A stretch of DNA of 32,000 nucleotides from Nitrospinota bacterium (GTDB lineage Bacteria > Nitrospinota_A > UBA7883 > JACRGQ01), in contig JAOUMJ010000020.1 in the NCBI GenBank assembly GCA_029881495.1, positions 22,230-54,229 on the forward strand, given 5' to 3'. Shown here in pieces: positions 7,901 to 31,403 of this stretch; position 1 is the first letter of the stretch, and the number at the start of each line of letters is the position of its first letter. Below the pieces are notes generated by a model. It had not been told where the DNA came from and ran no database searches. It saw nothing but the letters and a program-made list of their open reading frames with translations. Made by a program: the position numbers and the translations under genes.

Positions 7901-8153
7901 CAAAACGGCGGTGGCAAGCTACATCACCTTGAAGAAGGAGCCGAAGGAATCGGCTGTATCGCCAACGGCCTCGCTGTCGTCGGGTGACGGCGATTTCTCC
8001 TTCGATAACGCGGAATTCCTCTCGAGGTTTGAGAATATCAGAACGAAGATGAATTCGGGCGATTTTTCCGTTACGCCGAAGGATTGTGTTTTTTGCAAAT
8101 ACCGAAGGGCATGCAGGTACAGAGAGGTTATGAGCGTTGAACTTGGAGAGTAG
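4956..8153 (+). CDS. addB: AddB-type helicase-nuclease subunit B (PD-(D/E)XK nuclease family, no Walker A)
   Basis: 1065 aa. The C-terminal RecB-type nuclease motif is 'GLIDRIDLL...LRVVDYKYSS'. A canonical iron-staple Cys set is present ('FANCAF' ... 'DCVFCKYRRAC', i.e. C-Xn-C-X2-C-X5-C). No GxxxxGK[ST] motif occurs in the N-terminal region. An in-frame TGA at 4950-4952 prevents N-terminal extension. The 3' end overlaps addA. Confidence 0.8.
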   Translation: MDERLHVYPTRLKVEEVEAERYRSAGAVFSKHLISIFELEGRLARDLVPYNPISEVERWLLINQSIISEKSLGRDRAMAPLISSDGFVRSVGELIQQIKLGLVDSADLEKINGFAPGKEGWIKKVFAAYQKLLRTEGLYDSADISMELVKKLHDGVAPPAWLRSFSGIDFFDIYHYTPFRFEMITRLAEVVNIVVHFPLPDERRKAFDFVERDIQKFQSLAGMEGKLELAFDSLPGDDPGNKKKTALDILAGQIFSEEAGDAEEEISDSVEVVKNSGRYREIEEVASRIMDLKESRRSWSDFCLVFRQTGSYANIVEDVFRRAGIPVYIRRGLPVKNNLLVKTILGIFRIIETGYDRDEIVKLMTSDYFDIGLSREFARYLEKIFMDAGIISGPPSLLEKKCAAYLKRGIEMDGVPVAAETVDDISAGLKKVFSILKEVEKLSRASKAGETIAIFRKLLKIFSPRAIQFGFPFFTRDLFCKGRFYEVVEEAENAVKEHKLGESRFGWGDLRRLLFNSLGNAELPEWSEKNHVYALNIHELAGRRFPYIFVCGLHDGEFPLKSEHGAVLSESEKKLFNEKHSETVLARMAERKMGRQVFSRLGETWDEESFLFFLAVRSAREKIYFSYSTHDLNGKELGKSTFLYDIKTVLPALAETATRSVALEKGYFEQIDHPAREAKLLRDIFNTPEENAGALADYYRSVVGHPVTGKSFINSCERSMIERERDKFYSSAEPDVRANASSVYTGKVGEMPLLSGYVEKEARKGFSATAIERFANCAFRYFMDRPLQVKPQELPRADIERTVKGSIAHEILEIYYAPKGKFKVRSSLEPRNAREKRLNTVAEKVFAKWEKSELKGEPAIWEITKEQIRRALSLYLRSEETAFEKEPFTVVATELKFGPDEPFSVSLKLPGGEMSFNGLIDRIDLLDAKGMLRVVDYKYSSNTSKFSKLVKSEKYGEESFQVPVYLLAALNLAERKEEFSEIKTAVASYITLKKEPKESAVSPTASLSSGDGDFSFDNAEFLSRFENIRTKMNSGDFSVTPKDCVFCKYRRACRYREVMSVELGE

Positions 8154-11100
8154 CAGGGCAGAGGAGATAGTAGGGTTCGAAGGGGACACCTGCGTTCGCG
8201 CCTCGGCGGGGACGGGGAAGACCTTTATTCTCGTCGAGAAATTCATGCACATCCTGAAAGAGAAAACCGACGACAGTTATACGAAGATAGAAAATATCCT
8301 CGCGATAACCTTTACCGACAAAGCAGCGGAGGATATGCGGAAGAGGATAGGGGACAAAATATATGAAGAGGTGCGCGAGCTTGAAAAGCGGGAGAGAACA
8401 AAGGAAGAGGAAAAACTGCTAAGGCATCTTCGCACGGCAAGGAGGCTGTTGACGAAGGCGTACATCTCAACGATTCACTCCTTCTGCGCGAGGATATTAA
8501 GGGAGAATCCGCTGGAGGCAGGGATAGACCCGCAGTTTGAGATACTTGACGCGCAGAGGACTGGCGCGTTGCAGTCCAGATCGCTTGAACGTTTCCTTCT
8601 GGATAAACTGAGGAGAGGCGACAAGCCGGTTGCCGAACTTGCATACAGGTTCGGATTCGATTCGGATTTCGCGTTTGAGAGTTCGCTTTTCAGCCTCGTA
8701 TTGAGCCTCCTCCCTTTGATGAGAGCGGCGGGAGTAGATATTTTCTCCGAAAGGGCCTTGCTGTCCGAGTATTCGGAAAAGCTGGATGATGCTGAGAAAA
8801 TGCTTTCAGAACAAAAGAAGCAGTGTGCGTCCATTCTAAACGGGATGTCGGCTGAAATTTCAACCGAGAAACAGAAGGTGATAATGGAAATGCTTGTGAG
8901 TGGGATTTCCGCTCTTTCACCCTCAAGCGATATTGGGAATGAGGACACGCGGAAAAGCGTAAGCGGTATGAAATCTGCCATCAACCTGAATACCTTTAAA
9001 GGTAAAAAAGATGGCAATCTAAAGGCGCTGGCAACCGAGCTAAAAGAGACGCTGGAATTATATGAAATGACGGTTGTCTCTTCTCTCGCGCGTGAATCAG
9101 CCAGGCAGATAGCCGAGCTTGTCGGAGAGTTTTATCAGTACATGGAATCGTCCGTGAAGAACAGGGGCTTGCTTGATTTTGACGACTTGCAGGAGATGAC
9201 CCTCTGGCTTTTCAGGCGAAATGAAAGGATACTCGCGTATTACAGAAAAATGTTCCGCAATGTGCTGGTAGACGAGTTTCAGGATGTGAACGGTCTGCAG
9301 AAAATGATAGTGGAACAACTTGCCCCTCCCGGCGAAGGGAAACTTTTCGTGGTGGGGGACGTAAAGCAGGCGATATACGGATTTCGCGGGGGAGACCTTG
9401 AGGTGTTCGACGAAACCGAAAGAGCGATTGTAGAGAATGGCGGCGGGCTTTTCCGCCTGAATGTAAACAGGCGTTCAAATCCCGGTCTTGTGAAATTCGT
9501 GAACAGCTACTTCGGAAGATATGAGAAGAGCGTTTTCGACGCTGGTGATGAATGCGTATCTATGATGGATGAAACCGAAGTTTCGCCGGTGGAGTACTAT
9601 ACCTTCTCTGATGAAGAGAGCGCCGACAAGAGGCGGTTCAGCGAAGCAAATTTTATCGCGTCGCGAATAAACCGGCTGGTAGGTGAAAACAAGGCAAAGT
9701 TTTCCGACATGGCGATCCTTCTGCGAAAGTTTACCCCCCTCCCTATATACGAGGCCGCGCTTTCCCGGAATGGAGTGAGATACGCGGTACACAGGGGAAC
9801 AGGATTCTACAAGAGCCAGGAGGTGGCGGATCTTATTTCGATTCTCTCCTTCATTGATAATCCCGGCGACATAGTATCCTGGGTCGGCGCGGTGCGCTCC
9901 CCATACTGCGGATGTTCGGACAGGACCCTTTTCACGCTGAGGAGGGATGGTGAAGGAAAAACGGTCGAGCCGTACCGCCTCTTTTCAAGGGATGCCTATC
10001 TCCCCCCGCTTGATGAAGGGGAGGGGGAGAAATTCTCCGCCTTTGCGGAATGGGTCACTTTATTGATAAATCTGAAGGACAGGATGGCGGTATCGGAAAT
10101 AATCGAAACTGTTCTGGAAAAGAGCAGGATAACCGGCCTTCTTGGAGCGCAGAACGACGGTCTGCAAAAAGTTGCCAACGTGCTGAAGCTTATCGAAACC
10201 GCGAGGATGATGGAGCAGGAGCCGGGATTTACGCTGAAAAATTTCGTAAGGCACATCACGCGACTCTATGAACAGGAGGAGAGGGAATCCGAGGCAGTTG
10301 TCGTATCGGAAGAGGAGAATGCTGTAAAGATAATGACCGTGCATCAGAGCAAAGGGCTGGAATTCGGCATTGTATTCCTGCCGGACATTGGATCAAGCGG
10401 GAAGCGCGGAGGAGGATCGGCGATATTCCATAAGCGTAAAGGCTTGGCGGTAAAATATGTCGAGAAGGAAACCTTGTCATCCCATTCAGGGATCGTCTTT
10501 GAATCCACTAAGGAAGAGATAGAAGAAAAAGAGAAGAGCGACGCGAAGAGGCTTTTCTACGTCGGCTGTACCAGGGCGAAGGATATGCTGGTGCTTAGCG
10601 GATGCCCGGACCCGAAAAAGAAGAGGAGTGAAGCTTTGTCGGGCCTGGATGAATTGATGGAGCGCGAACCCTCCCTGTTCAATATCGTTTCCATACCCGT
10701 TGCAACTATGGAGGAGATAAGGGAACAGCGAACCCCATATGATGTATTGTCCGCCGGAGAAGAGCCGAAGAATACTGAATTGGGCAAAGGGGGCGAAGGG
10801 GTTGCGCCAATGGAACCCGCAGATGAAAGGAAAGAGGTCTTTGTCGATACAAGGAGCCTCGCCTCGTTCGCGAAATGTAAAAGGGAGTACATGCTTGGGA
10901 GATTGTACAGCGTGCCGGCAGAGAGGAGTTATCATGGCGGGCGCGGAGGGCGCAAGGGTGTTTACGAAGCGATGGAGATCGGCAACGCGATACACGCGAT
11001 TCTTGAAAAGCTCGATCTTGAGGTCCCGCAAGATGAAATGAGGACAGAAATTATCAAAATGGCGAAAAGGGAATTGCCTCTAGCATCAGAGGCGGAACTC

Positions 11101-11649
11101 CTGAAAGTTTCGCAAAAGCTGGAACGACTTTTTAAAACTCCGCTCTTTGAAAAAATTCGAAGCGGTGAAATGGAAGAAAAAGGGAGAGAGGTGCCGTTTA
11201 CTGCAAGATTCGGCAGGGATGGAGATGCATTTTTCCTCAAAGGGCAGGTCGATCTCCTGCTAAGGAGGGGCGAAACGGGGGTGATGATCGTCGATTACAA
11301 ATACGCTGTGAGGGGCGAAAGCGAGACGACTTATCGCTTTCAGGTGGAGGCGTACGCGGTTGCCGCGGAGCGCGTTCTCGGTGTCGAGGAGATCGTGTGC
11401 GCGATAGTCTATCTTGGCGGCGAAGAGCCGGAGTGTGTGGAATGGAAAATGGATACAGTGAAACTTCAAAAAGCTGAGGAGGCGATAACCGGTTCCATGA
11501 AAATGATTTCGGAGATGGAGAGGAGCCTTAGGGGAACTGAAGGGATACCCGACGCCGACTTTTCAAATATCCTTGGCGAGAGCGGAGCGGAAATAAAGTG
11601 TCCCGACGGAAACTGCGGCTATCATGCTGTCTGCTTCAGCGGTGAATAG
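8137..11649 (+). CDS. addA: AddA/RecB-type UvrD-family helicase with C-terminal PD-(D/E)XK nuclease
   Basis: SF1 helicase motifs: Walker A 'ASAGTGKTF', motif II 'VDEFQDVN', motif III 'VGDVKQAIYGFRGGD', 'TVHQSKGLEFGIVFL' and motif VI 'LFYVGCTRAKDMLVLS'. The C-terminal nuclease motif is 'GQVDLLL...VMIVDYKYA'. TTG start at 8137, 17-nt overlap with addB. Walker A lies only about 25 codons in, so the start is tightly constrained. Confidence 0.87.
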   Translation: MNLESSRAEEIVGFEGDTCVRASAGTGKTFILVEKFMHILKEKTDDSYTKIENILAITFTDKAAEDMRKRIGDKIYEEVRELEKRERTKEEEKLLRHLRTARRLLTKAYISTIHSFCARILRENPLEAGIDPQFEILDAQRTGALQSRSLERFLLDKLRRGDKPVAELAYRFGFDSDFAFESSLFSLVLSLLPLMRAAGVDIFSERALLSEYSEKLDDAEKMLSEQKKQCASILNGMSAEISTEKQKVIMEMLVSGISALSPSSDIGNEDTRKSVSGMKSAINLNTFKGKKDGNLKALATELKETLELYEMTVVSSLARESARQIAELVGEFYQYMESSVKNRGLLDFDDLQEMTLWLFRRNERILAYYRKMFRNVLVDEFQDVNGLQKMIVEQLAPPGEGKLFVVGDVKQAIYGFRGGDLEVFDETERAIVENGGGLFRLNVNRRSNPGLVKFVNSYFGRYEKSVFDAGDECVSMMDETEVSPVEYYTFSDEESADKRRFSEANFIASRINRLVGENKAKFSDMAILLRKFTPLPIYEAALSRNGVRYAVHRGTGFYKSQEVADLISILSFIDNPGDIVSWVGAVRSPYCGCSDRTLFTLRRDGEGKTVEPYRLFSRDAYLPPLDEGEGEKFSAFAEWVTLLINLKDRMAVSEIIETVLEKSRITGLLGAQNDGLQKVANVLKLIETARMMEQEPGFTLKNFVRHITRLYEQEERESEAVVVSEEENAVKIMTVHQSKGLEFGIVFLPDIGSSGKRGGGSAIFHKRKGLAVKYVEKETLSSHSGIVFESTKEEIEEKEKSDAKRLFYVGCTRAKDMLVLSGCPDPKKKRSEALSGLDELMEREPSLFNIVSIPVATMEEIREQRTPYDVLSAGEEPKNTELGKGGEGVAPMEPADERKEVFVDTRSLASFAKCKREYMLGRLYSVPAERSYHGGRGGRKGVYEAMEIGNAIHAILEKLDLEVPQDEMRTEIIKMAKRELPLASEAELLKVSQKLERLFKTPLFEKIRSGEMEEKGREVPFTARFGRDGDAFFLKGQVDLLLRRGETGVMIVDYKYAVRGESETTYRFQVEAYAVAAERVLGVEEIVCAIVYLGGEEPECVEWKMDTVKLQKAEEAITGSMKMISEMERSLRGTEGIPDADFSNILGESGAEIKCPDGNCGYHAVCFSGE

Positions 11650-11694: not shown

Positions 11695-13614
11695 CTACTG
11701 GATATTGTGATGCTTTCCTTCGTGTTCGATGATGGAGATGCTCTTTGGGCTTTTCAGAAGCTCAATTGATCTCTTGCAGATCCCTTCGGGATGGAGGGCG
11801 TATTTTTTTCTGGCGCTTTCCTGCGTGGAGTGAGGAACAAAAAGATCGGGAATCCCGATAGAGGCGCCGGCGATCGAGCCGAGCCCTTTGGCGCGCAGCT
11901 CTTCAAAAACGCCGGATCCAAACCCGCCGATGAGTGAGTTCTCTTCTACCGTTATGATATTGCCGCAGTGCTTGGCCCATTTTGAGATCATCTCCATGTC
12001 GAGAGGTTTTGCGAACCTGGCGTTTATTACCGCCGCGGAAATATTTTCCTTTTCAAGAAGCGCGGCAGCTTTTACGGCATTCACGACGGCATTTCCTATG
12101 GCGCAGATCACGATATCGTCTCCCTCATGGATCAGCTCGGCCTTTCCAATATCGATTAACCTGTATTCCTGCTCCAGCGGGATCCCTTCCACATTGCCGC
12201 GTGGATACCTTATAGAAGCCGGGCCGTTATGGTTAGCGGCGGTGTACATCATGTGGCGAAGCTCGTTTTCATCTTTGGGCGCCATCAAGGTCATGTTCGG
12301 TGTTTCGCGAAGAAAGCTGATATCGAAAATGCCCTGATGCGTGGAGCCGTCGTCACCTACGATTCCCGCCCTGTCGATGGCAAAGGTCACGGGCAAATTC
12401 ATGTTACAGACGTCGTGGATCACCTGGTCAAAAGCGCGCTGAAGGAAAGTCGAGTATATGGCGACGACCGGTTTGAAACCGTCGGCGGCCAGCGCGGCGG
12501 CAAACGTGACCGCGTGCTGTTCGGAAATGCCGACGTCGAAAAACCTGTTGGGGAATTTTTCGGAAAATTCCACAAGGCCGGTTCCGTCTCGCATCGCGGC
12601 GGTGATGGCAACTATTTTTTCATCATGCTCGGCAAGATCCACAATAGTTTTTCCGAAAATTGAAGTGTATGTAGGCCTGCTTTTGGATTTTTTCTTTCCT
12701 GTGGCGATATCGAACGGCGAGGTTCCGTGGAACGGTCCGGGGTCGGCCTGCGCGGGTGCATAGCCAAGCCCCTTCCTGGTAATGACATGTATGATGCGCG
12801 GGCCTGAAAGTTTCCTTATTGCCCTAAAGGAATCTATGAGGGTTTCAAGATTGTGCCCCTCTATGGGGCCGAAATACTTGAAGCCGAAATCTTCAAATAT
12901 CCTTCCGGGAACAATAATACCTTTTACTGCCTCCTCCACTCTGTGCGCGAAGGTGGCCACCTGTTTACCGATACCGGGTATGAGAGAGAGTATGTGATCC
13001 ACCTCTTTTTTCATTTTGTTGTATGTCTCGCCGCTTATGATCTTGTTCAGATGTGCAGAAAGGGCGCCGACATTCTCGGAGATAGACATCTCATTGTCGT
13101 TGAGTATCACCATCAGGTTCTTTCCAAGCGCGCCTGCGTTGTTAAGCCCTTCAAAGGATAGTCCCGATGTCATCGAACCATCCCCTATGACGGCGAGTAC
13201 GTCATGCTTTTCCCCTCTCATGTCGCGCGCCGCGGCGAACCCGAGAGCGGCGGAGATGGATGTCCCCGCGTGACCGGTATCGAAGTGGTCGGACGGGCTC
13301 TCTTCCCTTCTTGGAAACCCGGAGAGACCACCTTCTTTTCGAAGTGTGTCGAACCTGTCGAGGCGCCCTGTCAGCAGTTTATGGCTGTAGCACTGGTGCC
13401 CCACGTCCCAAATGAGCTTGTCTTTTGTAAAGTCGAAAACGGCATGCAAGGCGACAGTAAGCTCCACAACGCCGAGGTTTGGCGAAAGGTGTCCCCCGTT
13501 TTCCGAGACGGTTTGAATGATCTTTTCACGAAGTTCCTGCGAGAGCTCTTTCAGTTCGCTCAGGGATAGACCCGCAATGTCGTCGTGTGTTTTGATATTA
13601 GGGAGGTGTTTCAT
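11695..13614 (-). CDS. dxs: 1-deoxy-D-xylulose-5-phosphate synthase
   Basis: 639 aa. DXS hallmarks include 'GGHLSPNLGVVELTVALH', 'DVGHQCYSHKLLTGR', the ThDP-binding 'GDGSMTSGLSFEGLNNAG...LNDNEMSIS' and 'DRAGIVGDDGSTHQG'. It is the last gene of the conserved xseB-ispA-dxs unit. Confidence 0.97.
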   Translation of the reverse strand: MKHLPNIKTHDDIAGLSLSELKELSQELREKIIQTVSENGGHLSPNLGVVELTVALHAVFDFTKDKLIWDVGHQCYSHKLLTGRLDRFDTLRKEGGLSGFPRREESPSDHFDTGHAGTSISAALGFAAARDMRGEKHDVLAVIGDGSMTSGLSFEGLNNAGALGKNLMVILNDNEMSISENVGALSAHLNKIISGETYNKMKKEVDHILSLIPGIGKQVATFAHRVEEAVKGIIVPGRIFEDFGFKYFGPIEGHNLETLIDSFRAIRKLSGPRIIHVITRKGLGYAPAQADPGPFHGTSPFDIATGKKKSKSRPTYTSIFGKTIVDLAEHDEKIVAITAAMRDGTGLVEFSEKFPNRFFDVGISEQHAVTFAAALAADGFKPVVAIYSTFLQRAFDQVIHDVCNMNLPVTFAIDRAGIVGDDGSTHQGIFDISFLRETPNMTLMAPKDENELRHMMYTAANHNGPASIRYPRGNVEGIPLEQEYRLIDIGKAELIHEGDDIVICAIGNAVVNAVKAAALLEKENISAAVINARFAKPLDMEMISKWAKHCGNIITVEENSLIGGFGSGVFEELRAKGLGSIAGASIGIPDLFVPHSTQESARKKYALHPEGICKRSIELLKSPKSISIIEHEGKHHNIQ

Positions 13615-14501
13615 CAGTGCGTCCTGCTCCCGATGAAGAGCGCAAGCTCTTCAAGCGGTTTTATGTTCCCCTTGAGATCCTTTAGAGCCGCTATCGCGTT
13701 AATGATCTTTTCCGAAGCAAGCTCGCGGGACCTGTCGAGTCCAAGAAGGGAAGGATATGTCATCTTGCTCCTTGCGTCGTCGCTTCCGGCGGATTTTCCG
13801 AGTTCTTCCGTATTCCCTGTTACGTCGAGTATATCGTCGACTATCTGGAAGGCGTGGCCGATATTCTCGCCGTACTTCGCGAGCGAAGCCAATTCGCGGT
13901 CGTTCGCGTTTCCTATCAGTCCGCCCGCCTTTACCGCGGCAATTATCATCGCCCCGGTTTTACGGGTATGGATGTATTCGAGCGTCTCCATATCACCCTT
14001 TTTCCCTTCCGATTCGATGTCTACCTCCTGGCCGCCGACGGTACCCTGCGCGCCGACTGCTTGGCCGACTATCCCTATTATTCTAATCATTATATCCGAA
14101 GGGATTCCAGAGCCGTTGGGAGGGGATTCGGACAGTATTTCAAACGCGAGCGTTAGGAGGGCGTCCCCCGCCAGGATAGCAGTGGCCTCGCCGAATTTTA
14201 TGTGATTTGTTGGGAGCCCCCGCCTGAGATCGTCGTTGTCCATCGCGGGGAGGTCGTCATGGATAAGTGTGTATGTGTGGATCAGCTCTAAGGCAGCCGC
14301 TGTCGGCAAGGCGTTCTTCCTGTTTCCGCCGACAGCTTCTGTCCCGGCGACCACCAGGCATGGGCGCAGCCTTTTCCCCCCGGCAAAAACGGAGTAGGAC
14401 ATCGACTCAAAAAGCTTTTTCGGGATGTCTTGACGGACATTGAAAATGCGCTTTAGTTCCGATTCTATCTCTTTTCGGATTTCTTTAAAATGGGAGTTCA
14501 T
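13614..14501 (-). CDS. ispA: (2E,6E)-farnesyl/geranylgeranyl diphosphate synthase (polyprenyl synthetase)
   Basis: First Asp-rich motif '[17 protein letters not shown]' and second 'FQIVDDILD'. The stop overlaps the dxs start by 1 nt (TGATG). Confidence 0.93.
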
Positions 14502-14745
14502 CCTGCTCCGATGTGGAGTCCGTTTCCATCTGTTGCGTGGAAAGATTTCCTTTCTGATCCTTTATGAGTTTTTCGATCTTTTTTTCGGCGCCGGAAAGCT
14601 GGCTCTGGCAAACCTGCGCCATCTGGATACCTTCCTCGAACATTTTCAGGGATTTCTCAAGTTCCAGTTCTCCCCCCTCAAGCTGAGAAACAATCTCTTC
14701 CAGCTTTTGAAGGGCTTTTTCGAATTTTACCGTTTCCCCTGCCAT
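14485..14745 (-). CDS. xseB: exodeoxyribonuclease VII small subunit
   Basis: '[43 protein letters not shown]' is the typical XseB helical hairpin. I chose the ATG at 14745 ([12 protein letters not shown]) rather than the TTG at 14796. It overlaps ispA by 17 nt. Confidence 0.85.
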
Positions 14746-14751
14746 GCGCGT

Positions 14752-14780
14752 ATTATATCCCTTTCGCCGGGAATTGGAAA
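14752..14780 (-). promoter_or_regulatory. putative sigma70 promoter (TTTCCA-N17-TATAAT) placed for a leaderless or near-leaderless xseB transcript
   Basis: On the minus strand there is a perfect TATAAT (plus-strand 14752-14757) exactly 6 nt upstream of the xseB ATG. A -35-like TTTCCA (14775-14780) sits 17 nt further upstream. No Shine-Dalgarno sequence lies between them. Confidence 0.4.
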
Positions 14781-14851
14781 TGTCGTAAAGGGGCAAATAG
14801 ATGTATTTTCAGCCGCTTTTCAGGGTATGTTCCGTTAATCGGTGACTGCGA

Positions 14852-16987
14852 TCAGTAGCGGATCTCGGTCGGGTCGGAAGGGGCGGCCTTCTGCTGAGGG
14901 GTCTTGTCGAGGTCTTCCATGGAGAAGGCCCCGCTCTTGAGGAATCCGCGCACCCTTGTAACAACCGCGATCTTTGCCTGATCGACTTCCGCGACCGTAG
15001 CGTCCTTGGCAACGATCTTGTATTCGTCGCGCACTATCCTTCTTGCGTCCTCGTTGAGTGCCGAAAGTATCGCCGTCTGCACGTTCTTGTCGGACTGTAC
15101 AAGGGATTTGGCGATGGTGCTTCTCTCGAGATCCCTGATGGAATCCTTCAGCACGTTTCTCGGCACCTTCGGAATGTCGGTGAACGTGAAGTAGACCTTC
15201 TTTATCAGGTGGTATGTCTCCGGGTCCTCGGACTTGAGATGTTCGAGGAGCGTTGTCTGCGACGACATATCCATGAAGTCCATCATGCTGACCATGATGC
15301 CGACGCCATCGGCGGTAATGTTTTCAAGGCTTGGCACATCAATCGCCCGTCTGGCGATCCTCTGCGCAACCGGCTGGAAGGCGTTTATAGGTATGCTCTC
15401 GAATTTCGCCAGCTCGTACGCAATTGACGCCTGCTCTTCTATCGGAAGGTTTTTCAAAACCCCGGCCATCCTTTCCGGTGAAAGTTGCGAGAGAATGAGA
15501 GCCTTGACCTTTATCTCCTCCTCCTTGACGAGATAGGTTATTTGCGCTTCATCCAGATCGTTTAGGAAGCTGAACGGTTTTACTTTCTGCTTTTTGGCTC
15601 CGTGATCTTCCATCAGTATCTTTCTCATGGTGTCGTCGTGGAACCTCTCAAGGTACTGAACGGTTTCTTCCTCGCCGATCTCCTCTTCCTTCATGACGGT
15701 TTCTATCTCTATCAGCCTATCTACCGACAGCTCGCTGAAGATGCTCTTGCCGAGGTTGAAGCCGAGCACAGAGAAGAGGATGGCGGCCTTTTTCACGCCC
15801 TCACTGCTCTCAAGCTCTTCCTTTATCCTGCTGTTAAGGAGCCTCGGTTTGCCTACACCGAGGCTGACGATCTCCTGCTTGTACTGCTCTTTTTTCATCT
15901 GGAGCTTCAGGAGTTTTTTCTCCTCATCGATGAGCCCTCTCCTTTTCTCGGCTTCGCTTAGGGATTCTGATTTCTCCCTGGCTATTCTCTGCGCTTCGGC
16001 CATCTTTTCCTTTCTGAGTTTTCGCGCGGCGGACCAATTACGAAAAAAAATTCCGAATATGGTTACAAGCATCAGCAGAAGCATTATGCCAAGGAGCGCT
16101 ATGGCAAGATTTTCCCATTTCCTGTCGTCCATTGGAACTTTCTCTGCCGGGAAATCTATCTTTATGACTTCAAAGCCGTCCCCTCTGGTGACGTCCATGT
16201 CGAGCTTTTTGTAAACGAGGTTCTTAATGAATGATTCCTGCTCGCTCGTAATATTCCTGTCGACCATGAAGGTAACGAATATCTTCCTGATTATTTTTTC
16301 AATCTCCTGCTTCGTCTCCCGGACTGGAGGCGACTGAACCGGCATCGGCAAAACAGGCTGCTGTTGCTGAACAATCGTCGCGGCAGGCGGGATGAATGTC
16401 TCATCGGTAGTTACCGTCCTTTTCTGTCCCGGCGCTCTTCCTGTATCGTCTTCCATATCTTCATCGCCGAAGTCCGATCCGAGATCCGAAAAGGGGAGGC
16501 CCGGAAGTGTTTCGCCAAAATCGTCGCCTGACGCAAAGTCTCCTGAATCCTCCCTTGTCACTCTCCGTTTGATGAACCTGTTTTGCTGGAACTGCTGTTC
16601 CGGTGTGAGAACAGGCTGGAACTGGGTGACTGAAGTCTGCGGAGCCAAAGGCTGTTGCTGTATCTGCGATTGTTCCTGCGCAAGCGGCTGGGCTACCGGC
16701 TCCGGAGCCTTAGGAGCGATCGTCTCGGTTTTTGAGTCGAATATTTCAGCGTCGACCCTCAGGATGAAACGGGAATGACCAAGGTATGACGATATATCCC
16801 GGCTTAATCTCTCCTCGACCCGTTTTTCAAAAACAATTCCGCCGAGTTTGTCTTCTTCGAGTGTGGTTTTTACTTCATCCTGGGCCAGGGTGATTCCGGT
16901 CGAGGTGAGAAAGAATACAAGCGCACTGAAGAGGAAGAGCCCCCTTCCGTTCACCCATCTATTTTTCATAATCGTCATATTTTCCAT
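14852..16987 (-). CDS. membrane-anchored FliF/EscJ-like periplasmic module fused to a FliG-like (N/M/C) cytoplasmic domain
   Basis: 711 aa.
- aa 15-35: hydrophobic signal/anchor.
- aa 51-87: 'FEKRVEERLSRDISSYLGHSRFILRVDAEIF', resembling the FliF/PrgK/EscJ ring-building motif ('LEGELxRTIxxLxxVxxARVHLxxP').
- aa 88-225: Q/P/D/E-rich low complexity.
- aa 226-280: 'IFVTFMVDRNITSEQESFIKNLVYKKLDMDVTRGDGFEVIKIDF', resembling the second half of that motif.
- aa 293-315: TM helix.
- aa 316-390: K/E coiled coil.
- aa 395-690: FliG-like, with 'AAILFSVLGFNLGKSIFSELS', 'ALILSQLSPERMAGVLKNLPIEEQASIAYELAKFESI' and the torque-helix-like 'LSALNEDARRIVRDEYKIVAKDATVAEVDQAKIAVVTRVRGFLKSGAF'. Confidence 0.7.
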   Translation of the reverse strand: MENMTIMKNRWVNGRGLFLFSALVFFLTSTGITLAQDEVKTTLEEDKLGGIVFEKRVEERLSRDISSYLGHSRFILRVDAEIFDSKTETIAPKAPEPVAQPLAQEQSQIQQQPLAPQTSVTQFQPVLTPEQQFQQNRFIKRRVTREDSGDFASGDDFGETLPGLPFSDLGSDFGDEDMEDDTGRAPGQKRTVTTDETFIPPAATIVQQQQPVLPMPVQSPPVRETKQEIEKIIRKIFVTFMVDRNITSEQESFIKNLVYKKLDMDVTRGDGFEVIKIDFPAEKVPMDDRKWENLAIALLGIMLLLMLVTIFGIFFRNWSAARKLRKEKMAEAQRIAREKSESLSEAEKRRGLIDEEKKLLKLQMKKEQYKQEIVSLGVGKPRLLNSRIKEELESSEGVKKAAILFSVLGFNLGKSIFSELSVDRLIEIETVMKEEEIGEEETVQYLERFHDDTMRKILMEDHGAKKQKVKPFSFLNDLDEAQITYLVKEEEIKVKALILSQLSPERMAGVLKNLPIEEQASIAYELAKFESIPINAFQPVAQRIARRAIDVPSLENITADGVGIMVSMMDFMDMSSQTTLLEHLKSEDPETYHLIKKVYFTFTDIPKVPRNVLKDSIRDLERSTIAKSLVQSDKNVQTAILSALNEDARRIVRDEYKIVAKDATVAEVDQAKIAVVTRVRGFLKSGAFSMEDLDKTPQQKAAPSDPTEIRY

Positions 16988-16994
16988 TTTACCA

Positions 16995-17669
16995 TTACCG
17001 GTGTATTTTAATTACCACTCTGCGGTTCTGCATTTGATTTTCCGCAATAGCGTTTCCAAGTTCATCCCTGTTTGGAGCCTTGGGCGCGATGTCGGCAAAC
17101 CCGGAAGCCTGCAGTCTCTTTTTTTCAATACCGAATTCGATAAGCATGCGGAGCACGTTTGTAGCCCTCGCGGTCGAGAGCTCCCAGTTGGAGGGGTATT
17201 TCACAGTATTGATAGGAACGTCGTCCGTATGCCCCTCCACCGAGACCTTGTGGTCGTCGTATGAGATCACTTTCAGCGATTTGGCTACCTTGTCGATGAT
17301 CGGTCTCGCGGTATCCATTATCTCCGCGTCGCCGGACAAAAAGAGGGCGGCGCTGGAGAATTCCAGCTTTATACCCTGTGCGGAGAGGTCGACCATTATT
17401 TCCTTTTCCAGGTTTTCCTGTTTAATCATCTTGTCCAGCTCGTTTTTCAGTTCATGGAACGGTTTTGTAACCTTCTTTTTGCTAACCGATTCAATAAGTC
17501 CGGCTTTGACCTCTTCATACTTTGAAGCATCTACTACCGATATCGCGGCAAGGAGAATGAAGAAGGCGAGGAGCAGGGTGACCATGTCCGAATAGGTGGT
17601 CATCCATGTTCCTTCCTCCGATTCTTCGGATCTCCTTCTTCCGGGAGAGCCGCTCTTGTTGAAAGCCAT
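16995..17669 (-). CDS. motB: MotB-type stator subunit (OmpA-like peptidoglycan-binding domain)
   Basis: Single TM helix carrying the conserved channel Asp ('TTYSDMVTLLLAFFILLAAI'). The C-terminal OmpA-like domain has 'VSVEGHTDDVP' and the PG-binding motif 'NWELSTARATNV'. An SD-like AAGGAA lies upstream of the ATG. Confidence 0.87.
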   Translation of the reverse strand: MAFNKSGSPGRRRSEESEEGTWMTTYSDMVTLLLAFFILLAAISVVDASKYEEVKAGLIESVSKKKVTKPFHELKNELDKMIKQENLEKEIMVDLSAQGIKLEFSSAALFLSGDAEIMDTARPIIDKVAKSLKVISYDDHKVSVEGHTDDVPINTVKYPSNWELSTARATNVLRMLIEFGIEKKRLQASGFADIAPKAPNRDELGNAIAENQMQNRRVVIKIHR

Positions 17670-17694
17670 TACCTGTTCCTTTTAATGTTTTTCA

Positions 17695-18474
17695 TTACCT
17701 GCCGCTTTTCTTTCTGCTGAACCGCTTTTTTGGCTCAATGAAAGAGTTGAGTTTGTTTTCAACGAATATGGGGTGCTGTTTTTCCGCCAGTAGGAGTATC
17801 CCGTTCATCTGTATTACTCTCACCAGCACCTCGTAATCGGTTCTTCGCCTTATTTTTTCCGCTATCGGCATGAACAGCAGGTTCGACAGGAGGGTTCCGT
17901 ACAACGTCGTAGTAAGGGCTATCGCAAGTGCGGGCCCTATTGTAGAAGGGTCTTCCCCCATCTGCTGAAGCATGATTATAAGGCCTACGAGGGTACCGAT
18001 CATCCCAAAGGCAGGCGCGTACGATGCCATAACCTTGAACATGCTGTACTGCCCCTGCTGGGCGTCCACCATCCCTTCTATCATGTTTTCCAGGTTGGCC
18101 TTGATCTCATCTCTCTTGTACCCGTTGATAAGGAGCATGAGACCGTCCTTTTCAAATGAATTTTTAAGCTTGAGAGCTTCGTCCTCTATCGCGGAGAGCC
18201 CCTTGCTCTTTATGATCTCCGCCCACCGCGCAAACCTCGGAACAAGGTTTGTGTATGTGGTGTCATGCGACATGAATATCTTGTATACCGACAGGAACGA
18301 GCGTTTGACGTCCTCGTAGGGGAACGCGATGAATGTCGAGGCAACCGTTCCCCCAAGGACAATCGCGAAGCCCGGCATATTTACAAATACCAGGTACTCT
18401 TTCGTACTGCTTACGATAGCGGCGACGAATATCGCGATACCGGCAATAAGTCCGATCAAGGTTGATATTGACAT
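17695..18474 (-). CDS. motA: MotA/PomA-type stator subunit (MotA/TolQ/ExbB proton-channel family)
   Basis: 259 aa with four TM segments and a large cytoplasmic loop between TM2 and TM3. The conserved Pro-containing TM3 and TM4 read 'YAPAFGMIGTLVGLI' and 'GPALAIALTTTLYGTLLSNLLFMPIAEKI'. Size and topology match flagellar-type MotA, not the long-tailed ZorA. Confidence 0.9.
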   Translation of the reverse strand: MSISTLIGLIAGIAIFVAAIVSSTKEYLVFVNMPGFAIVLGGTVASTFIAFPYEDVKRSFLSVYKIFMSHDTTYTNLVPRFARWAEIIKSKGLSAIEDEALKLKNSFEKDGLMLLINGYKRDEIKANLENMIEGMVDAQQGQYSMFKVMASYAPAFGMIGTLVGLIIMLQQMGEDPSTIGPALAIALTTTLYGTLLSNLLFMPIAEKIRRRTDYEVLVRVIQMNGILLLAEKQHPIFVENKLNSFIEPKKRFSRKKSGR

Positions 18475-18475
18475 A

Positions 18476-19153
18476 TCAGTACCCCATTTCCTCTAGTTTG
18501 CGTCTTACGTCATTCATGGAAGGGTCGTGCTGAAGCGCCGCTTGCCACGATTGAACCGCCAGATCGAGCTTCTTCATCCTGTAAAAGATGGAGCCTTTCA
18601 GCGCGTGCGCGTAGGCATAGTCGGGGGCTATCAGCAGGGCCTTGTTCACTTCCTTCAAGGCGAGCGTGTACCGCTTCTTATAGAACTGTCTCTGCGCCTT
18701 GTTCAGATGGTTACTTGCCCTGTTGAAAGGGGATTGCGCCTCCGACGGCTCGCCGGGGGAAATCGCTACATCCTCCTCCGGAATGTCCATCTGCACAAAT
18801 ACGTTCTCATCGCCGGGGTCGATGTTCATCACGATGTCGTAACTTCTCCCCTTTCGCCTTATCTGCACGGTTTGGGGCGAGCGCGTGGCAAGAGTATCAT
18901 CTGCCGCCGCCCCTTGTTCGTTTGCTCCGTTCCTCTGCGGCTCGAGATTTATCGGCAGGTCGCCGGTATCCTCTCCCTTGCGGGCGGCCTCTTCCCTGGC
19001 CGCCTGTTTCACCATATCCTTTGTAGAGGAGCAGGCTGTAAGGGGGGAGAATGCAAATAGCAATATGGAGGCGGGGAGGATAACATGGGCCATAACCGCC
19101 CTTGCCAAGTTTGACCGCCATACAGTTTTCATCATTTCAATCACCTTGTTCAT
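18476..19153 (-). CDS. TPR-repeat lipoprotein
   Basis: Signal peptide ending in the lipobox 'PLTAC' (Cys41). A charged, probably disordered linker is followed by C-terminal TPR-like repeats ('QFYKKRYTLALKEVNKALLIAPDYAYAHALKGSIFYRMKKLDLAVQSWQAALQHDPSMNDV'). The start abuts the upstream stop (TAAATG), and the stop is 1 nt from the motA ATG. Confidence 0.7.
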   Translation of the reverse strand: MNKVIEMMKTVWRSNLARAVMAHVILPASILLFAFSPLTACSSTKDMVKQAAREEAARKGEDTGDLPINLEPQRNGANEQGAAADDTLATRSPQTVQIRRKGRSYDIVMNIDPGDENVFVQMDIPEEDVAISPGEPSEAQSPFNRASNHLNKAQRQFYKKRYTLALKEVNKALLIAPDYAYAHALKGSIFYRMKKLDLAVQSWQAALQHDPSMNDVRRKLEEMGY

Positions 19154-20470
19154 TTAAAAAACAAATCCGATACCGACTTCATACGTCGTTCCGCCAAAAT
19201 TGATATGCGATTCGAAATCGCCGATAGGCACCAGTTCGATCCTCTTTTCAGGGATATTCACAAATCCCAGAGAGAAGGAAAAGCGCTCGCTGAATCTAAG
19301 GGTCAGGCCGCTCTTATAGATTTCGGTGTGGTGTTTCATGAACAGCGCCTCGCCAAGGGAGACGTAGTAGTTCCATGTGGAGAAATATTCCTTCCGCAGA
19401 TTTTTTTCATCTACCGGCTCGTATCCCTCACCGGAGAAGAATATCTTGTCGAGCTTTAGGATAAGGTGCCCGTAAAATGCCCCTCCCGCAATGTCGAAGA
19501 ACTCGGGCCTTACGATATTGGCGAAATAATCGAGCCCAACGCCGTATATGATATGTTTGGAGTTCTTCGATTCTCTCAATACCTTGAGGCTAAGAGTAGC
19601 CACCTTGTCGAGATGCTCTGCTGGGAGAGTGGCGGACTTTCTCTCATATTTGTAGCCCCATATGCCGGTCTCCAGAGCAACTTCGTACGGGCGGAGTTCC
19701 TTTTCCTCTTCGATCTCCTCAAAGATGTCCTGGAACTTTCTCGCCCATACGACCTCCCCTGTCTTTGCGTCTACGACCTTGAAATTGAGAAACAGCTTGT
19801 CGTTTTCAACATATACGTTCCAGAGGAAAAAGCCGTCGACCTTTATGTTCTTTGCAATTTCCGCGAGCCGCTGGTTCGATTCCACGGCCCTCAGGATGGT
19901 GAACGTGTTCTCCTTGAGGATGAGCTGGGTCGATTTGCACTCCATGCATTCGAATATCTGGAACCTGCCGGTTTCAAGAAGTTTGCGTGTTAGCCCGTTC
20001 TCGATAAGCTCGTATATCTTCGCTGGCAGCATTTTGTTCTGCTTGTCGGCGTTCCGGTAAAGGGCGATCTTGTTCACGCGCGGACTGATAGATAAAAGTT
20101 CCTCTTTCGAGAAATTCATCGCCATGATAAGCGTCTGAACACGTTCGTAGAGATTCGGGTTTCGCGTCTGCTCAAAGGCCTCACCTGTGAGGAGGCTTTT
20201 TACCGGCTGTCTGTTCCCAGGCTGCGGTGTTGTCCCGGGGAGAGGCGCGGTATCGTCGAATACGGTTTCATCCTGCGGAAGCTCAAGTGGCTCACCATCC
20301 GGTGGAAGCTCGTCTTCAGGCGGCAGTTCTATACTCTTCACCGGTTGAAAGTCGGGTGATGCACCCGCCGGAGGCTCCTGCGCGTATGACAGATTGGCCA
20401 CTAAAAGCGCAAACAATATCGCTGACAACCAGGTATATCTACCCAGATGCAAAACTTTGACGTATTTCAT
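19154..20470 (-). CDS. secreted outer-membrane-type protein: P/E-rich linker, CsgG/FlgO/TolB-N-like alpha/beta module, C-terminal beta-barrel-like domain
   Basis: Signal peptide 'SAILFALLVANLSYA|QE'. aa 31-90 are Pro/Glu/Asp-rich. aa ~130-245 ('IALYRN...LTRKLLETGRFQIFECMECK...VDGFFLWNVYVENDKLFLNFKVVDAKTGEVVWARKF') resemble the periplasmic alpha/beta modules of CsgG, LpoB, FlgO and TolB-N proteins. aa ~260-438 form alternating beta-strand patterns ending in the OMP-type beta-signal 'YEVGIGFVF'. The RBS AAGGGA sits 7 nt upstream of the ATG. Confidence 0.6.
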   Translation of the reverse strand: MKYVKVLHLGRYTWLSAILFALLVANLSYAQEPPAGASPDFQPVKSIELPPEDELPPDGEPLELPQDETVFDDTAPLPGTTPQPGNRQPVKSLLTGEAFEQTRNPNLYERVQTLIMAMNFSKEELLSISPRVNKIALYRNADKQNKMLPAKIYELIENGLTRKLLETGRFQIFECMECKSTQLILKENTFTILRAVESNQRLAEIAKNIKVDGFFLWNVYVENDKLFLNFKVVDAKTGEVVWARKFQDIFEEIEEEKELRPYEVALETGIWGYKYERKSATLPAEHLDKVATLSLKVLRESKNSKHIIYGVGLDYFANIVRPEFFDIAGGAFYGHLILKLDKIFFSGEGYEPVDEKNLRKEYFSTWNYYVSLGEALFMKHHTEIYKSGLTLRFSERFSFSLGFVNIPEKRIELVPIGDFESHINFGGTTYEVGIGFVF

Positions 20471-20499
20471 TCATTTATCCCTTCTTGCGTCAAAAAGTA

Positions 20500-20515
20500 T
20501 GCAGTAATCATTCCA
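20500..20515 (-). promoter_or_regulatory. putative sigma54 (-24/-12) promoter for the five-gene operon
   Basis: The minus strand reads TTGGAATGATTACTGCATA. GG and GC have exactly the consensus spacing of TGGCAC-N5-TTGCA (here TGGAAT-N5-CTGCA). The element sits about 30 nt upstream of the ATG at 20470, with the RBS in between. Confidence 0.3.
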
Positions 20516-20572
20516 ATATTTGAAAATCCCGGAAAAATAACCACATAGAGAGAGGGGAGCGTTAAAAAATTG

Positions 20573-20594
20573 ACGTAAATTCCCTTTTTTACGT
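20573..20594. promoter_or_regulatory. inverted repeat ACGTAAA-N8-TTTACGT (candidate activator/regulator site)
   Basis: Perfect 7-bp arms at 20573-20579 and 20588-20594, about 60-90 bp upstream of the putative -24/-12 element. That is the distance typical for enhancer-binding-protein sites. Confidence 0.25.
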
Positions 20595-20685
20595 AGGAAA
20601 CTTGCTCCAGTTTTATCTCCTTAAAAGAAGCGAGGAGGTGGTGACAATCTCTACAAAAGCGAATTTTCCAAAATTGTGAGGCCAA

Positions 20686-20702
20686 CCTACAAAAAATGTA
20701 GG
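20686..20702. promoter_or_regulatory. palindrome CCTACA-N5-TGTAGG
   Basis: Perfect 6-bp arms with an AAAAA spacer, inside the 582-bp intergenic region. Function unknown. Confidence 0.2.
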
Positions 20703-21052
20703 ATATATTTCTCCCTAAACTGAGCATCTTTCTCCCTTTGGTTTGAATGAAACGTAACATATTATAGCAACAAAAGAGCCTTCTCCGCACCCGGCTTCTG
20801 GAAGCCGTTTTCACCCGGTTTGTCGCGATCTTTTCCGAATTTGCCATAGCTGAATAAAGTCTCCCTATAAGCGAGCCCTCGCTGTTCTTTCAAGTCGATG
20901 AGCGAAAATTGCTCTCAACAGCTAGTATACTATTACTGGTAAACAGCGCATTCATGGCAATGAAAATTTGCCCGGGATCTGGAGAAACCGAGTAAATAGA
21001 TCTTTCGTTCTGGAAAATTGAAATTTAACAATTCGAAGAGGGGGGTGGCAAA

Positions 21053-21868
21053 TTGGGATCATCGTCAGTCACGGAAAATTCGTTCCGCGAAACAACGCTT
21101 GGCAAGACAGGGAGGGTAGTTGGAAGGATTGCCGTCTCCGGCGGCTACGGTGTGCCGGCTGGCGCGGTCGAGATGGCGTTCGAGCGGGGGTGCAACTATT
21201 TCTATCACGGTTCATTCCGCAAAAAAGGGATGAATGAAGCGATTAAAAATCTTTGCGCCGCCGGGAAGAGGGATGAGCTTTTCATAGTCGCCCAGGTCTA
21301 TACGAGATGGGGCTGGCAGTTCCGCAGAAGTTTTTACAGCTTCCTAAAGAAAACCGGCCTTGATTATGCCGATGCGCTCTTACTCGGCTGGTACAACTCT
21401 ACCCCCTCCCCGAAGATACTCGACATCTGCGCGGAACTAAGGGAGAAGGGGCTTGTTCGCCATATCGCCATCTCGGGGCACAACAGGCCGGCGTTCCCGG
21501 TGTTCGCCGAGAAGGGTGTCGGAGATATATTTCATATACGGTACAACGCCGCCCACAGGGGGGCGGACTCGGACGTATTCCCGATGCTGAAAGGGGATCG
21601 TCCCGGCACGGTTGCCTATACGGCCACTTCGTGGGGACAGCTGTTAAAGAAGGGGAAAATGCCCGCCGGAGAAATGGTGCCGCGGGCTTCGGACTGTTAC
21701 AGGTTCGTATTGTCGAATCCAAATTTCGACCTCTGCATGACAGGCCCCGCCGACACTGCACAGATGGGGGAGGCTCTCGCCGCTCTTGACCGCGGGGCGA
21801 TGAGCGAGGAGGAGCTTGCCTGGATGCGCCGTGTCGGCGACCATGTGAGTCGTAAGAGTTTCAGATAG
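21053..21868 (+). CDS. aldo/keto reductase-like oxidoreductase
   Basis: 271 aa. The N-terminus 'FRETTLGKTGRVVGRIAVSGGYG' and 'VRHIAISGHN' fit the AKR (COG1453-like) TIM-barrel family. The canonical 'DTAxxY' block is not obvious ('CNYFYHGSF'), so it may be divergent. TTG start with a GAGGGGGG RBS 7-8 nt upstream. Confidence 0.55.
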   Translation: MGSSSVTENSFRETTLGKTGRVVGRIAVSGGYGVPAGAVEMAFERGCNYFYHGSFRKKGMNEAIKNLCAAGKRDELFIVAQVYTRWGWQFRRSFYSFLKKTGLDYADALLLGWYNSTPSPKILDICAELREKGLVRHIAISGHNRPAFPVFAEKGVGDIFHIRYNAAHRGADSDVFPMLKGDRPGTVAYTATSWGQLLKKGKMPAGEMVPRASDCYRFVLSNPNFDLCMTGPADTAQMGEALAALDRGAMSEEELAWMRRVGDHVSRKSFR

Positions 21869-30845: not shown

Positions 30846-31403
30846 CCCGTCATTCTATCCGCTTTATAAATTGGCAACAAGGAAACAGATTAGATGAATG
30901 AATGTGTCATCGCTGACTGGTGATGTTTTTATGCAAGTTTGTGTAAAAACTCTTCAAGTTAAAAATGAGGATAGCGGAAAAGATGCCCCTGCCAATAAAG
31001 TAGAAGTGTGATTACAGCAATTAAAATTACAGGCAAATATCGATCGACAACCATTGGTCGATAGCATAAAAAAATAAACGTGTAATTTATGGTTCCTGAG
31101 ACTTATAGACAGACGAAAATATCAGACTTGAATCGTCATAGTTATTTTGTAAATTCACTCCCTTTTAGAAATTATTTTAAAAAATACGCAATATTATAAC
31201 GTTACATTTGATGGCAATTATAAACATTGTACAGTTTCAAGAGGTTGGCTATTTAATCATGTCCTTTTCGTGACAGATTGGCAGGTAAAATTATATTTAT
31301 TATTTCGTTGACACTGGGGAAAGGCTAAAAAAGGTGGAAAATTTAGCAAGTTCTTATTGTATTCTTATAGCATTAAATTCAAATTAATATAGGGAGATTG
31401 TTT

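Follow-up and report, generated by a model that had tools for sequence, protein, structure and literature searches.

A Natural Fusion of a Truncated FliF with FliG, Encoded Beside Its Own PomAB-Type Stator in Nitrospinota and Vibrio

The FliF–FliG fusion gene of the Nitrospinota window

The stretch of DNA analysed here (the window) comprises 32,000 nucleotides of a Nitrospinota metagenome-assembled genome (MAG), namely positions 22,230–54,229 of the forward strand of contig JAOUMJ010000020.1 (assembly GCA_029881495.1). Its minus strand carries, at 14852..16987, an open reading frame (ORF) of 711 aa in which FliF-like and FliG-like sequences are fused; the GenBank entry for this gene (MDH5543169.1, locus tag OEY64_09420, on a contig of 362 kb) starts at Met7, is 705 aa long and is named 'hypothetical protein'. 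Judging from profile comparisons and structure prediction, the protein is a FliF without ring-building motifs 1 and 2 (RBM1 and RBM2), to whose C-terminal end a complete FliG is joined. Four genes lie directly upstream of it on the same strand, with gaps of 0–25 bp, and are referred to below, together with the fusion gene, as the cassette. A preliminary description of the window, made from its letters, had suggested a natural FliF–FliG fusion; the ORF and all the peptides quoted there were found at 14852–16987 (minus strand), the order of parts given there (anchor, half-motif, insert, half-motif, transmembrane helix, helix, FliG region) matches the AlphaFold 2 (AF2) model, and its central claim is borne out by profile, structural and family-wide evidence.

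The AF2 model of the window protein was built on 12 homologues and has a mean predicted local distance difference test (pLDDT) score of 66. At the N-terminus, a hydrophobic segment (aa 15–37, 16877..16945), read from the sequence and modelled as a helix at aa 13–28, is either a cleavable signal peptide, cut between TLA and QD, or the counterpart of the first transmembrane helix of FliF. It is followed by the RBM3a-like half (aa 38–92, 16712..16876), which is modelled as a strand (38–45), a helix (47–69) and a long strand (74–92) and aligns with E. coli FliF from about residue 227. The insert equivalent to the FliF β-collar (aa 93–222, 16322..16711) is rich in Q, P, T and D and predicted to be disordered (pLDDT about 30); it contains an LPGLP motif (aa 161–165, 16493..16507) recognised by conservation and alignment. 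In the RBM3b-like half (aa 223–280, 16148..16321), AF2 places a strand at 223–242, a helix at 248–261 and a strand at 271–276, and the RGD...F pattern of this half matches 'KRGDSLNVVNSPF' of FliF.

The membrane-spanning and cytoplasmic parts follow in the order known from FliF and FliG. The transmembrane helix (aa 293–316, 16040..16111), identified by AF2 and alignment as the counterpart of the second transmembrane helix (TM2) of FliF, sits within one continuous predicted helix (aa 290–379), which extends through a K/E-rich cytoplasmic helix (aa 317–372, 15872..16039) and into the counterpart of the C-terminal FliG-binding helix of FliF (aa 373–394, KPRLLNSRIKEEL, 15806..15871), recognised by alignment. 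The FliG N-domain-like region (aa 395–468, 15584..15805), supported by profiles and by the Foldseek match to 3hjl, is about 27 aa shorter than that of E. coli. The middle domain (aa 469–560, 15308..15583) is supported by Pfam and phmmer, and the C-terminal domain (aa 561–690, 14918..15307) by Pfam, phmmer and Foldseek; the latter retains the conserved hinge glycine (Gly561) and the phenylalanine of the MFxF motif (Phe602) and includes the torque helix (aa 645–660, NEDARRIVRDEYKIVA, 15008..15055), located by alignment with E. coli FliG. Residues 381–684 are all-helical and FliG-like in the AF2 model. No Rfam, tRNA or tandem-repeat feature was found within or near the fusion gene, and the low-complexity insert contains no DNA tandem repeats.

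Homology to FliF and FliG across the family

An exhaustive HMMER search covering 1.84 billion cluster representatives showed a family far larger than the 12 relatives given by a word-indexed protein search; a repetition of the indexed search with a 78-member alignment found no further members. The best 150 matches, each a separate 50%-identity cluster, were used (E ≤ 2.4e-57); nearly all of them are full-length proteins of 560–780 aa aligned end to end. The 403 matches at E ≤ 1e-30 probably include some true FliGs, and only the top 150 were retained. Residue conservation counts given here refer to 149 members, and the per-member Pfam scans and the main profile to 78. An alignment scan of the GTDB species representatives matched 120 stretches, none of which is a true relative, so the close subclade of the window protein is absent from that set. 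The hosts include Nitrospinota, Vibrio nigripulchritudo, V. agarivorans, Vibrio sp. SCSIO 43132 and 43136 and a gammaproteobacterial MAG; one clade adjoins a gene with a weak match to a sorting domain of the type IX secretion system, a hint of Bacteroidota. Database names of members are 'FliG C-terminal domain-containing protein' or 'hypothetical protein'. Since the same fused architecture is conserved family-wide, in nearly all of the best 150 matches and in complete V. nigripulchritudo chromosomes, the fusion is not an artefact of a sequencing or assembly frameshift joining two genes.

Profile searches clearly indicate the relationship of the whole protein to FliF followed by FliG. The best match of the 78-member full-length profile among solved structures is the engineered Vibrio FliF–FliG fusion 8z4d, aligned in one stretch over chain residues 269–937 (E = 6.9e-50), and an hmmsearch of the same profile against concatenated E. 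coli FliF and FliG produced a single collinear alignment from FliF residue 227 to FliG residue 321 (E = 3.6e-48). Taken separately, Salmonella FliF is matched at residues 233–558 (E = 5.5e-12) and E. coli FliF at residues 226–550 (E = 1e-13). Searched against solved structures, a nine-sequence profile of the periplasmic part matched nothing but FliF chains at E < 0.21 (9yh6 at E = 0.0022) and aligned both halves to Salmonella FliF 234–442 (E = 0.006). An hhalign comparison of this small profile with the single sequence of E. coli FliF, which recovered only the C-terminal half, at 5% probability, is superseded by the larger profiles. The Pfam model YscJ_FliF_C (PF08345) has a sub-threshold match to the window protein alone (E = 0.022) and matches 27 of the 78 members scanned singly, one of them above the curated cut-off (33.4 bits against 23.8, model positions 3–147). 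Foldseek matched the AF2 model of the window protein to FliF RBM3 rings, in agreement with the predicted β-α-β/insert/β-α-β topology of its periplasmic part. The FliF-like character of the periplasmic halves, proposed earlier by eye, thus stands on both the periplasmic-only and the 78-member profiles.

The earlier reading of the periplasmic part as reduced to about one motif can now be stated more precisely: RBM3 is kept, and, as far as the comparisons reach, RBM1 and RBM2 are absent from the family. The model that represents the latter, YscJ_FliF (PF01514), matched none of the 78 members, all alignments to FliF start at about residue 226–233, and only about 10 residues separate the signal segment from the RBM3 helix. 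The split motif with an insert, which the preliminary description had noticed, is present, but the layout is not novel; it is FliF's own order of RBM3a, β-collar and RBM3b. RBM3 of Vibrio FliF comprises residues 257–299 and 392–449 and is interrupted by a β-collar (300–388) with an unresolved loop on top (PMC11481574).

The segment interrupting RBM3 has a median length of 50 aa in the family (range 28–147). That of the window protein, about 146 in alignment columns, is the longest, and the low-complexity insertion of about 140 aa described earlier is therefore real, but its length is an extreme and not typical of the family. LPGLP is flanked to the left and right by the extra Q/P-rich sequence, which is lineage-specific. 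LPGLP itself is the best-conserved periplasmic motif, with its proline kept in 147/149 and its glycine in 146/149 members, and aligns with low posterior to the collar motif GVPGAL of FliF. Elsewhere, GD of the RGD motif is retained in 144–146 of the 149 members and the transmembrane helix in 146.

The assignment of the cytoplasmic part to FliG is equally clear. The window protein has significant matches to FliG_C (5.6e-17) and FliG_M (1.1e-11), whereas MgtE_N, beneath the stronger FliG_M match, reaches only E = 0.0083 (17.1 bits, below the cut-off of 25.9); an identity of the C-terminal region with the MgtE N-domain, the alternative that the preliminary description had named, is consequently rejected. 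FliG_C and FliG_M were found in 78/78 members and FliG_N in 64/78. Residues 469–689 align with the Thermotoga and Aquifex FliG structures in phmmer, Foldseek matched the AF2 model to full-length Aquifex FliG (3hjl, 319 columns, E = 9e-9), and the 78-member profile covers residues 11–327 of A. aeolicus FliG (E = 1e-46) and 5–321 of E. coli FliG. The N, M and C regions of FliG are thus all present in order, as had been proposed, the N domain being shorter. At the same time, the score against the NCBIfam fliG equivalog TIGR00207 (78.8 bits) is under the cut-off (226.7), so the fusion protein is a FliG homologue and not an equivalog. Of the EHPQR motif, the family keeps only the first glutamate (E125, in 140/149 members) and varies at H, P, Q and R; in the window protein, EEIK...E stands in place of EHPQ...R, and the FliM-binding motif is therefore absent. 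The hinge glycine is kept in 144 and the MFxF phenylalanine in 128 of the 149 members.

The junction between the two parts differs from the earlier view that a peptide bond had replaced the FliF–FliG interface. Both the cytoplasmic linker and the C-terminal FliG-binding helix are retained, and the interface is tethered: the family consensus of this helix, nPelVa.vl.eWi, matches E. coli DPRVVALVIRQWI, and the FliG N-terminus begins within a few residues of it. The K/E helix, previously described as a coiled coil, is present; more precisely, it is the counterpart of the linker that in FliF runs from TM2 to the C-terminus.

In the torque helix of the window protein, D654 and E655 occupy the positions of E. 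coli D288 and D289, D647 that of R281 and T664 that of R297 (the E. coli torque-helix string quoted in the preliminary description was slightly wrong; the true sequence is SQRAADILRDDLA). The acidic pair is therefore kept and the R281 and R297 positions are changed, as had been noticed, but the change at R281 is a peculiarity of a subclade and not a family trait: the position is R or K in 141/149 members and Asp only in the small subclade of the window protein. Position 289 is E or D in 82/149. R650 of the window protein stands at the position of D284, and most members have R/K and E/Q where D647 and R650 stand, so that the two residues, compared with R281 and D284 of E. coli, look like an i/i+3 charge swap on one face of the helix. 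No change that would match this swap is seen at the E98 position of MotA. Across the 149 members, the R281 position, the hinge glycine, the MFxF phenylalanine, GD of RGD and PG of LPGLP are functional sites under purifying selection. By these comparisons, the homology to FliF and FliG, the order of domains and the conservation of some interface residues can be regarded as established, as can the synteny described below.

Partner genes and gene order

The two genes nearest to the fusion gene encode a stator. The MotB-type subunit (224 aa, 16995..17669, minus strand) matches MotB_plug (1.1e-17) and the OmpA-like peptidoglycan-binding domain (1.6e-15); it has the plug and carries the channel aspartate in the context YSDMVT, compared with YADFMT in E. 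coli. The MotA/PomA-type subunit (259 aa, 17695..18474, minus strand), assigned by PomA alignment, Pfam and NCBIfam, aligns over its full length with Vibrio PomA (8brd, E = 4e-41) and has K at the R90 position, E at the E98 position and conserved P173 and P222. Among the MotA proteins of the cassettes, P173 and P222 never vary, and 7/8 have an acidic residue at the E98 position. All NCBIfam equivalog scores of the window MotA and MotB are below the cut-offs; judged by these alignments, the stator is of the flagellar PomAB type. A Zorya or other defence system was considered and rejected: PADLOC gave no ZorA match for MotA and none for the partner proteins, and only generic ZorB/MotB similarity was seen.

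Further upstream, on the same strand, lie two genes whose products are orthologous across loci by tblastn. The first encodes a TPR protein of 225 aa (18476..19153), a conserved cassette member according to Pfam and its orthologues, with a lipobox (LTAC, Cys41); a lipobox-type cysteine was found in 6/7 orthologues. The second encodes a conserved protein of an unassigned family (438 aa, 19154..20470) with a signal peptide, a CMEC motif and a C-terminal half that is rich in β structure and has Phe as its last residue. Orthologues of the 438-aa protein (e.g., L001:5500-6681, L087:8168-9301, L088:8404-9429 and L089:6224-7282 in the loci listed below) have a C-terminal phenylalanine and a signal peptide in 7/7 cases. 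Sub-threshold Pfam matches to CsgG, FlgO, FlgT_M and OMP_b-brl converge, and the protein is a putative outer-membrane β-barrel with a periplasmic N-domain; a search of its family profile against solved structures returned nothing meaningful. The C-[MI]-E-C motif of the periplasmic domain is found in 5/7 orthologues, and a disulfide or metal site is possible there.

Eight loci were compared: the window, L088 from a closed V. nigripulchritudo chromosome, and L001, L002/L004, L005, L087, L089 and L090, which are metagenomic or unplaced. The MotA/MotB pair adjoins the fusion gene in 8/8 loci, in three gene orders, and the TPR and 438-aa-type proteins are encoded in at least 7/8, L005 having two unrecognised proteins instead; this synteny is kept across about 20% sequence identity. 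No other flagellar gene was found near the cassette in any of the eight loci, nor elsewhere in the 32-kb window. L005 (GCA_013558375.1, JACCDG011542058.1) and L090 (GCA_024449895.1, JAANSX013718891.1) are short contigs from assemblies whose contig numbers reach the millions; they have the appearance of bacterial DNA contained in assemblies of very large size, perhaps those of eukaryotic hosts or of metagenomes. The V. nigripulchritudo locus (AP027045.1, 3.06–3.08 Mb) has a flanking response-regulator GGDEF gene and a gene for a 1307-aa AsmA-family protein after motB, and genes of PAS/GAF hybrid histidine kinases flank the cassettes of L001 and L090; these neighbours may point to regulation by cyclic di-GMP or to a link with outer-membrane lipid transport.

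Immediately upstream of the cassette, the stretch 20471–21052 has the lowest GC content of the central window (0.46), and an ORF of 126 codons (20467–20847, minus strand) overlaps the cassette start. The ORF was rejected as a cassette member: its product has an odd, Cys/Arg-rich composition and no Pfam match, tblastn found no counterpart of it in the related loci, and it lies in this low-GC stretch. The region 20467–20847 is probably a non-coding leader or promoter of the cassette. A sigma-70-like site is present at 21051–21022; the promoter and terminator scan performed no better than on shuffled sequence. On the other side, 55 bp after the fusion gene, lie xseB (14485–14796), ispA (13614–14501) and dxs (11695–13614), also on the minus strand. 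None of 80 other dxs loci, including that of the nearest Nitrospinota MAG (64% Dxs identity), has a cassette upstream, so its position beside xseB-ispA-dxs is local and not conserved.

The rest of the window contains housekeeping genes (grpE-dnaJ, batA-like VWA, addAB-like, dxs-ispA-xseB, cytochrome c peroxidase, dnaK, dut), among them two tandem BatA-N/VWA genes of the aerotolerance-operon type (2262–4234, minus strand) and an AddAB-like helicase-nuclease pair (1065 and 1170 aa; 4956–11649, plus strand). At the right-hand end (31001–32000), the GC content drops to 0.375 with a strong positive GC skew, and an open frame that runs off the window (31398–32000, plus strand) has no Pfam, Rfam or tRNA match; this end may be foreign or intergenic DNA.

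A possible non-flagellar rotor–stator machine and its relatives

With its own stator, two genes for putative outer-membrane partners and no other flagellar genes, the cassette looks like a stripped-down motor that does not build a flagellum. We consider it probable, with moderate confidence, that the cassette encodes a self-contained non-flagellar rotor–stator machine, in which the truncated FliF::FliG would be turned by its own PomAB-type stator. The RBM3 domains would oligomerise into an S-ring-like ring in the periplasm, with an equal number of FliG domains ringed under the inner membrane. In flagellar motors, the FliF:FliG ratio is 1:1 and the FliF ring has about 34 subunits; here, the covalent link would fix the ratio at 1:1. 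In units of the MotA5B2 type, which MotB would fix to peptidoglycan, the flow of ions would act on the torque helix of the FliG C-domain and turn the ring. As there is no RBM1/RBM2 for an export gate, no FliM-binding motif and, in the cassette, no gene for export, rod, hook or filament, such a device could neither build or switch a flagellum nor secrete. Torque or conformational work might then be handed on by the periplasmic collar, with LPGLP at its tip, to the partners in the outer membrane, the TPR lipoprotein and the β-barrel protein. The wider proposal, that the cassette is an autonomous ion-driven rotary machine driving an outer-membrane process via these two partners and represents a new class of envelope motor, is more tentative, and we regard it as somewhat less than an even chance.

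Several observations weigh against this interpretation. The formation of a ring and its rotation are extrapolated from homology, and the collar is short in the family, LPGLP being flanked on either side by about 20 residues in the median, and may be without a FliF-like β-barrel. K264 and R297 of the torque helix are not conserved anywhere in the family, and in the window protein the R281 equivalent is Asp (D647) and the FliG-binding helix (KPRLLNSRIKEEL) is degenerate, its tryptophan being lost. The outer-membrane assignment of the 438-aa protein is drawn from sequence features and sub-threshold Pfam matches, its AF2 model being poor (pLDDT 46). Finally, no minus-strand terminator-like site was found in 14300–21200, and thus none between the fusion gene and xseB-ispA-dxs, which leaves the operon boundaries uncertain; the cassette may be co-transcribed with this isoprenoid/exonuclease VII operon.

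The only serious rival is that the fusion protein forms a non-rotating ring or a smaller oligomer, acting either as a static platform for Tol/Ton-like energy transfer by MotAB or as a stator sink or sensor regulating another motor. In its favour, the putative outer-membrane partners and the peptidoglycan-binding MotB recall the logic of Tol-Pal and Ton, the K264 and R297 charges of the torque helix are not conserved, and two-component or GGDEF genes flank three loci. Nevertheless, it is precisely the components of the rotating S-ring and of the FliG ring that have been retained. Residues contacting MotA are conserved at the R281 position and, as an acid in 82/149 members, at the 289 position, as are R90, E98, P173 and P222 on the MotA side and the hinge glycine and the MFxF phenylalanine; the cassette is also equally present in a Nitrospinota MAG without flagellar genes in 32 kb. 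We regard this alternative as unlikely, at roughly one chance in a handful, and prefer a turning rotor.

It is far less probable that the cassette supplies the ordinary flagellar MS-ring (membrane–supramembrane ring) and FliG of the host, encoded as one gene and working inside a normal flagellum. In favour of this role, engineered full-length FliF–FliG fusions assemble rings and support motility (PMC4768692, PMC11481574), the gene lies next to a stator of the PomAB kind used by flagella, and the search of the Nitrospinota host for flagellar genes covered the 32-kb window. Against such a role, none of the 78 members has RBM1 or RBM2, the motifs that enclose the export gate in flagella, and their FliF alignments begin at about 227; EHPQR is lost family-wide, with E125 alone kept; the TIGR00207 score is 78.8 against a cut-off of 226.7; and no flagellar genes lie nearby in the eight loci. 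Moreover, the family is found in Vibrio species, which also have the standard fliF and fliG of an ordinary polar flagellum. Least probable of all is that the gene has no present function, being either an artefact of assembly or the decaying remnant of a flagellum since lost: although non-flagellated lineages such as Lysobacter (PMC9927559) and Chlamydia (PMC4768692) keep scattered flagellar genes, and the long low-complexity insert and degenerate FliG-binding helix of the window protein look relaxed, nearly all of the best 150 cluster representatives have intact reading frames, the motifs are strongly conserved, synteny with four constant partner genes holds across about 20% identity and three gene orders, and the cassette is present in closed Vibrio chromosomes.

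To our knowledge, there is hardly a case of the flagellar rotor FliF/FliG outside the flagellum. If the cassette is a rotor–stator machine, the torque core (S-ring, FliG and stator) can exist apart from export, rod and filament, which bears on whether the motor and the export apparatus were separable modules in flagellar evolution; the cassette could be a living model, derived or ancestral, of the motor core without a type III export apparatus, and it would add a member to the 5:2 ion-driven motors. Being one polypeptide with a fixed 1:1 stoichiometry, the rotor would offer a minimal system for ring assembly and the stator–rotor interface. The cassette is of high interest because it is widespread and conserved and bears on the separability of the motor core, and its presence in culturable Vibrio (V. 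nigripulchritudo, V. agarivorans) makes the idea open to genetics and cryo-electron tomography. A description of the cassette was not found in the texts searched, and papers beyond these may exist; a recent survey of MotAB and related non-flagellar proteins (PMC12505986) contains no mention of a non-flagellar stator that is coupled to FliG.

The closest relatives are flagellar FliF and FliG. Collinearity with them begins at RBM3, takes in the β-collar position, TM2, the linker and the FliG-binding helix, and continues over the N, M and C regions of FliG. Unlike them, the family is without RBM1/RBM2 (about 180 aa) and EHPQR, its collar is short in most members and carries the invariant LPGLP, and the cassette has the TPR lipoprotein and the putative β-barrel instead of export, rod, hook, filament and switch genes. 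The engineered FliF–FliG fusions of Salmonella (Francis 1992, as cited in PMC4768692) and Vibrio (FliFG, PDB 8z4d/8z4g; PMC11481574) have the same 1:1 chain ratio, whereas the present fusion is natural. The sole natural precedent found is the FliF–FliG fusion of Chlamydiaceae, a protein of about 330 aa which has lost RBM3, contains FliG-M only and has no dedicated MotAB (Bergeron 2016, PMC4768692); it is also a truncated FliF joined to FliG-like sequence in the absence of a complete flagellum. Compared by description, its truncation is the opposite of the present one, where RBM3 is kept, RBM1/2 are lost, FliG is complete and MotAB is its own. SpoIIIAG, which forms the channel ring of sporulation, also has a ring-building motif split by a β insert and forms a large ring (PMC4768692), though the family profile did not find it among solved structures at E ≤ 0.01, and the SpoIIIAH model had a weak match to 1/78 members. 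Finally, ExbBD-TonB, TolQR-TolA-Pal, GldLM, AglRQS and Zorya ZorAB likewise encode a MotA/MotB-family energiser with envelope-spanning partners, and these 5:2 motors and the cassette would likely share the role of sending inner-membrane ion-motive energy toward the outer membrane. The cassette differs from them in its PomA-like stator, with a large cytoplasmic torque domain and R90/E98-type charges, and in the predicted target of this stator, a FliG ring and not a rod of the TonB/TolA/GldM type.

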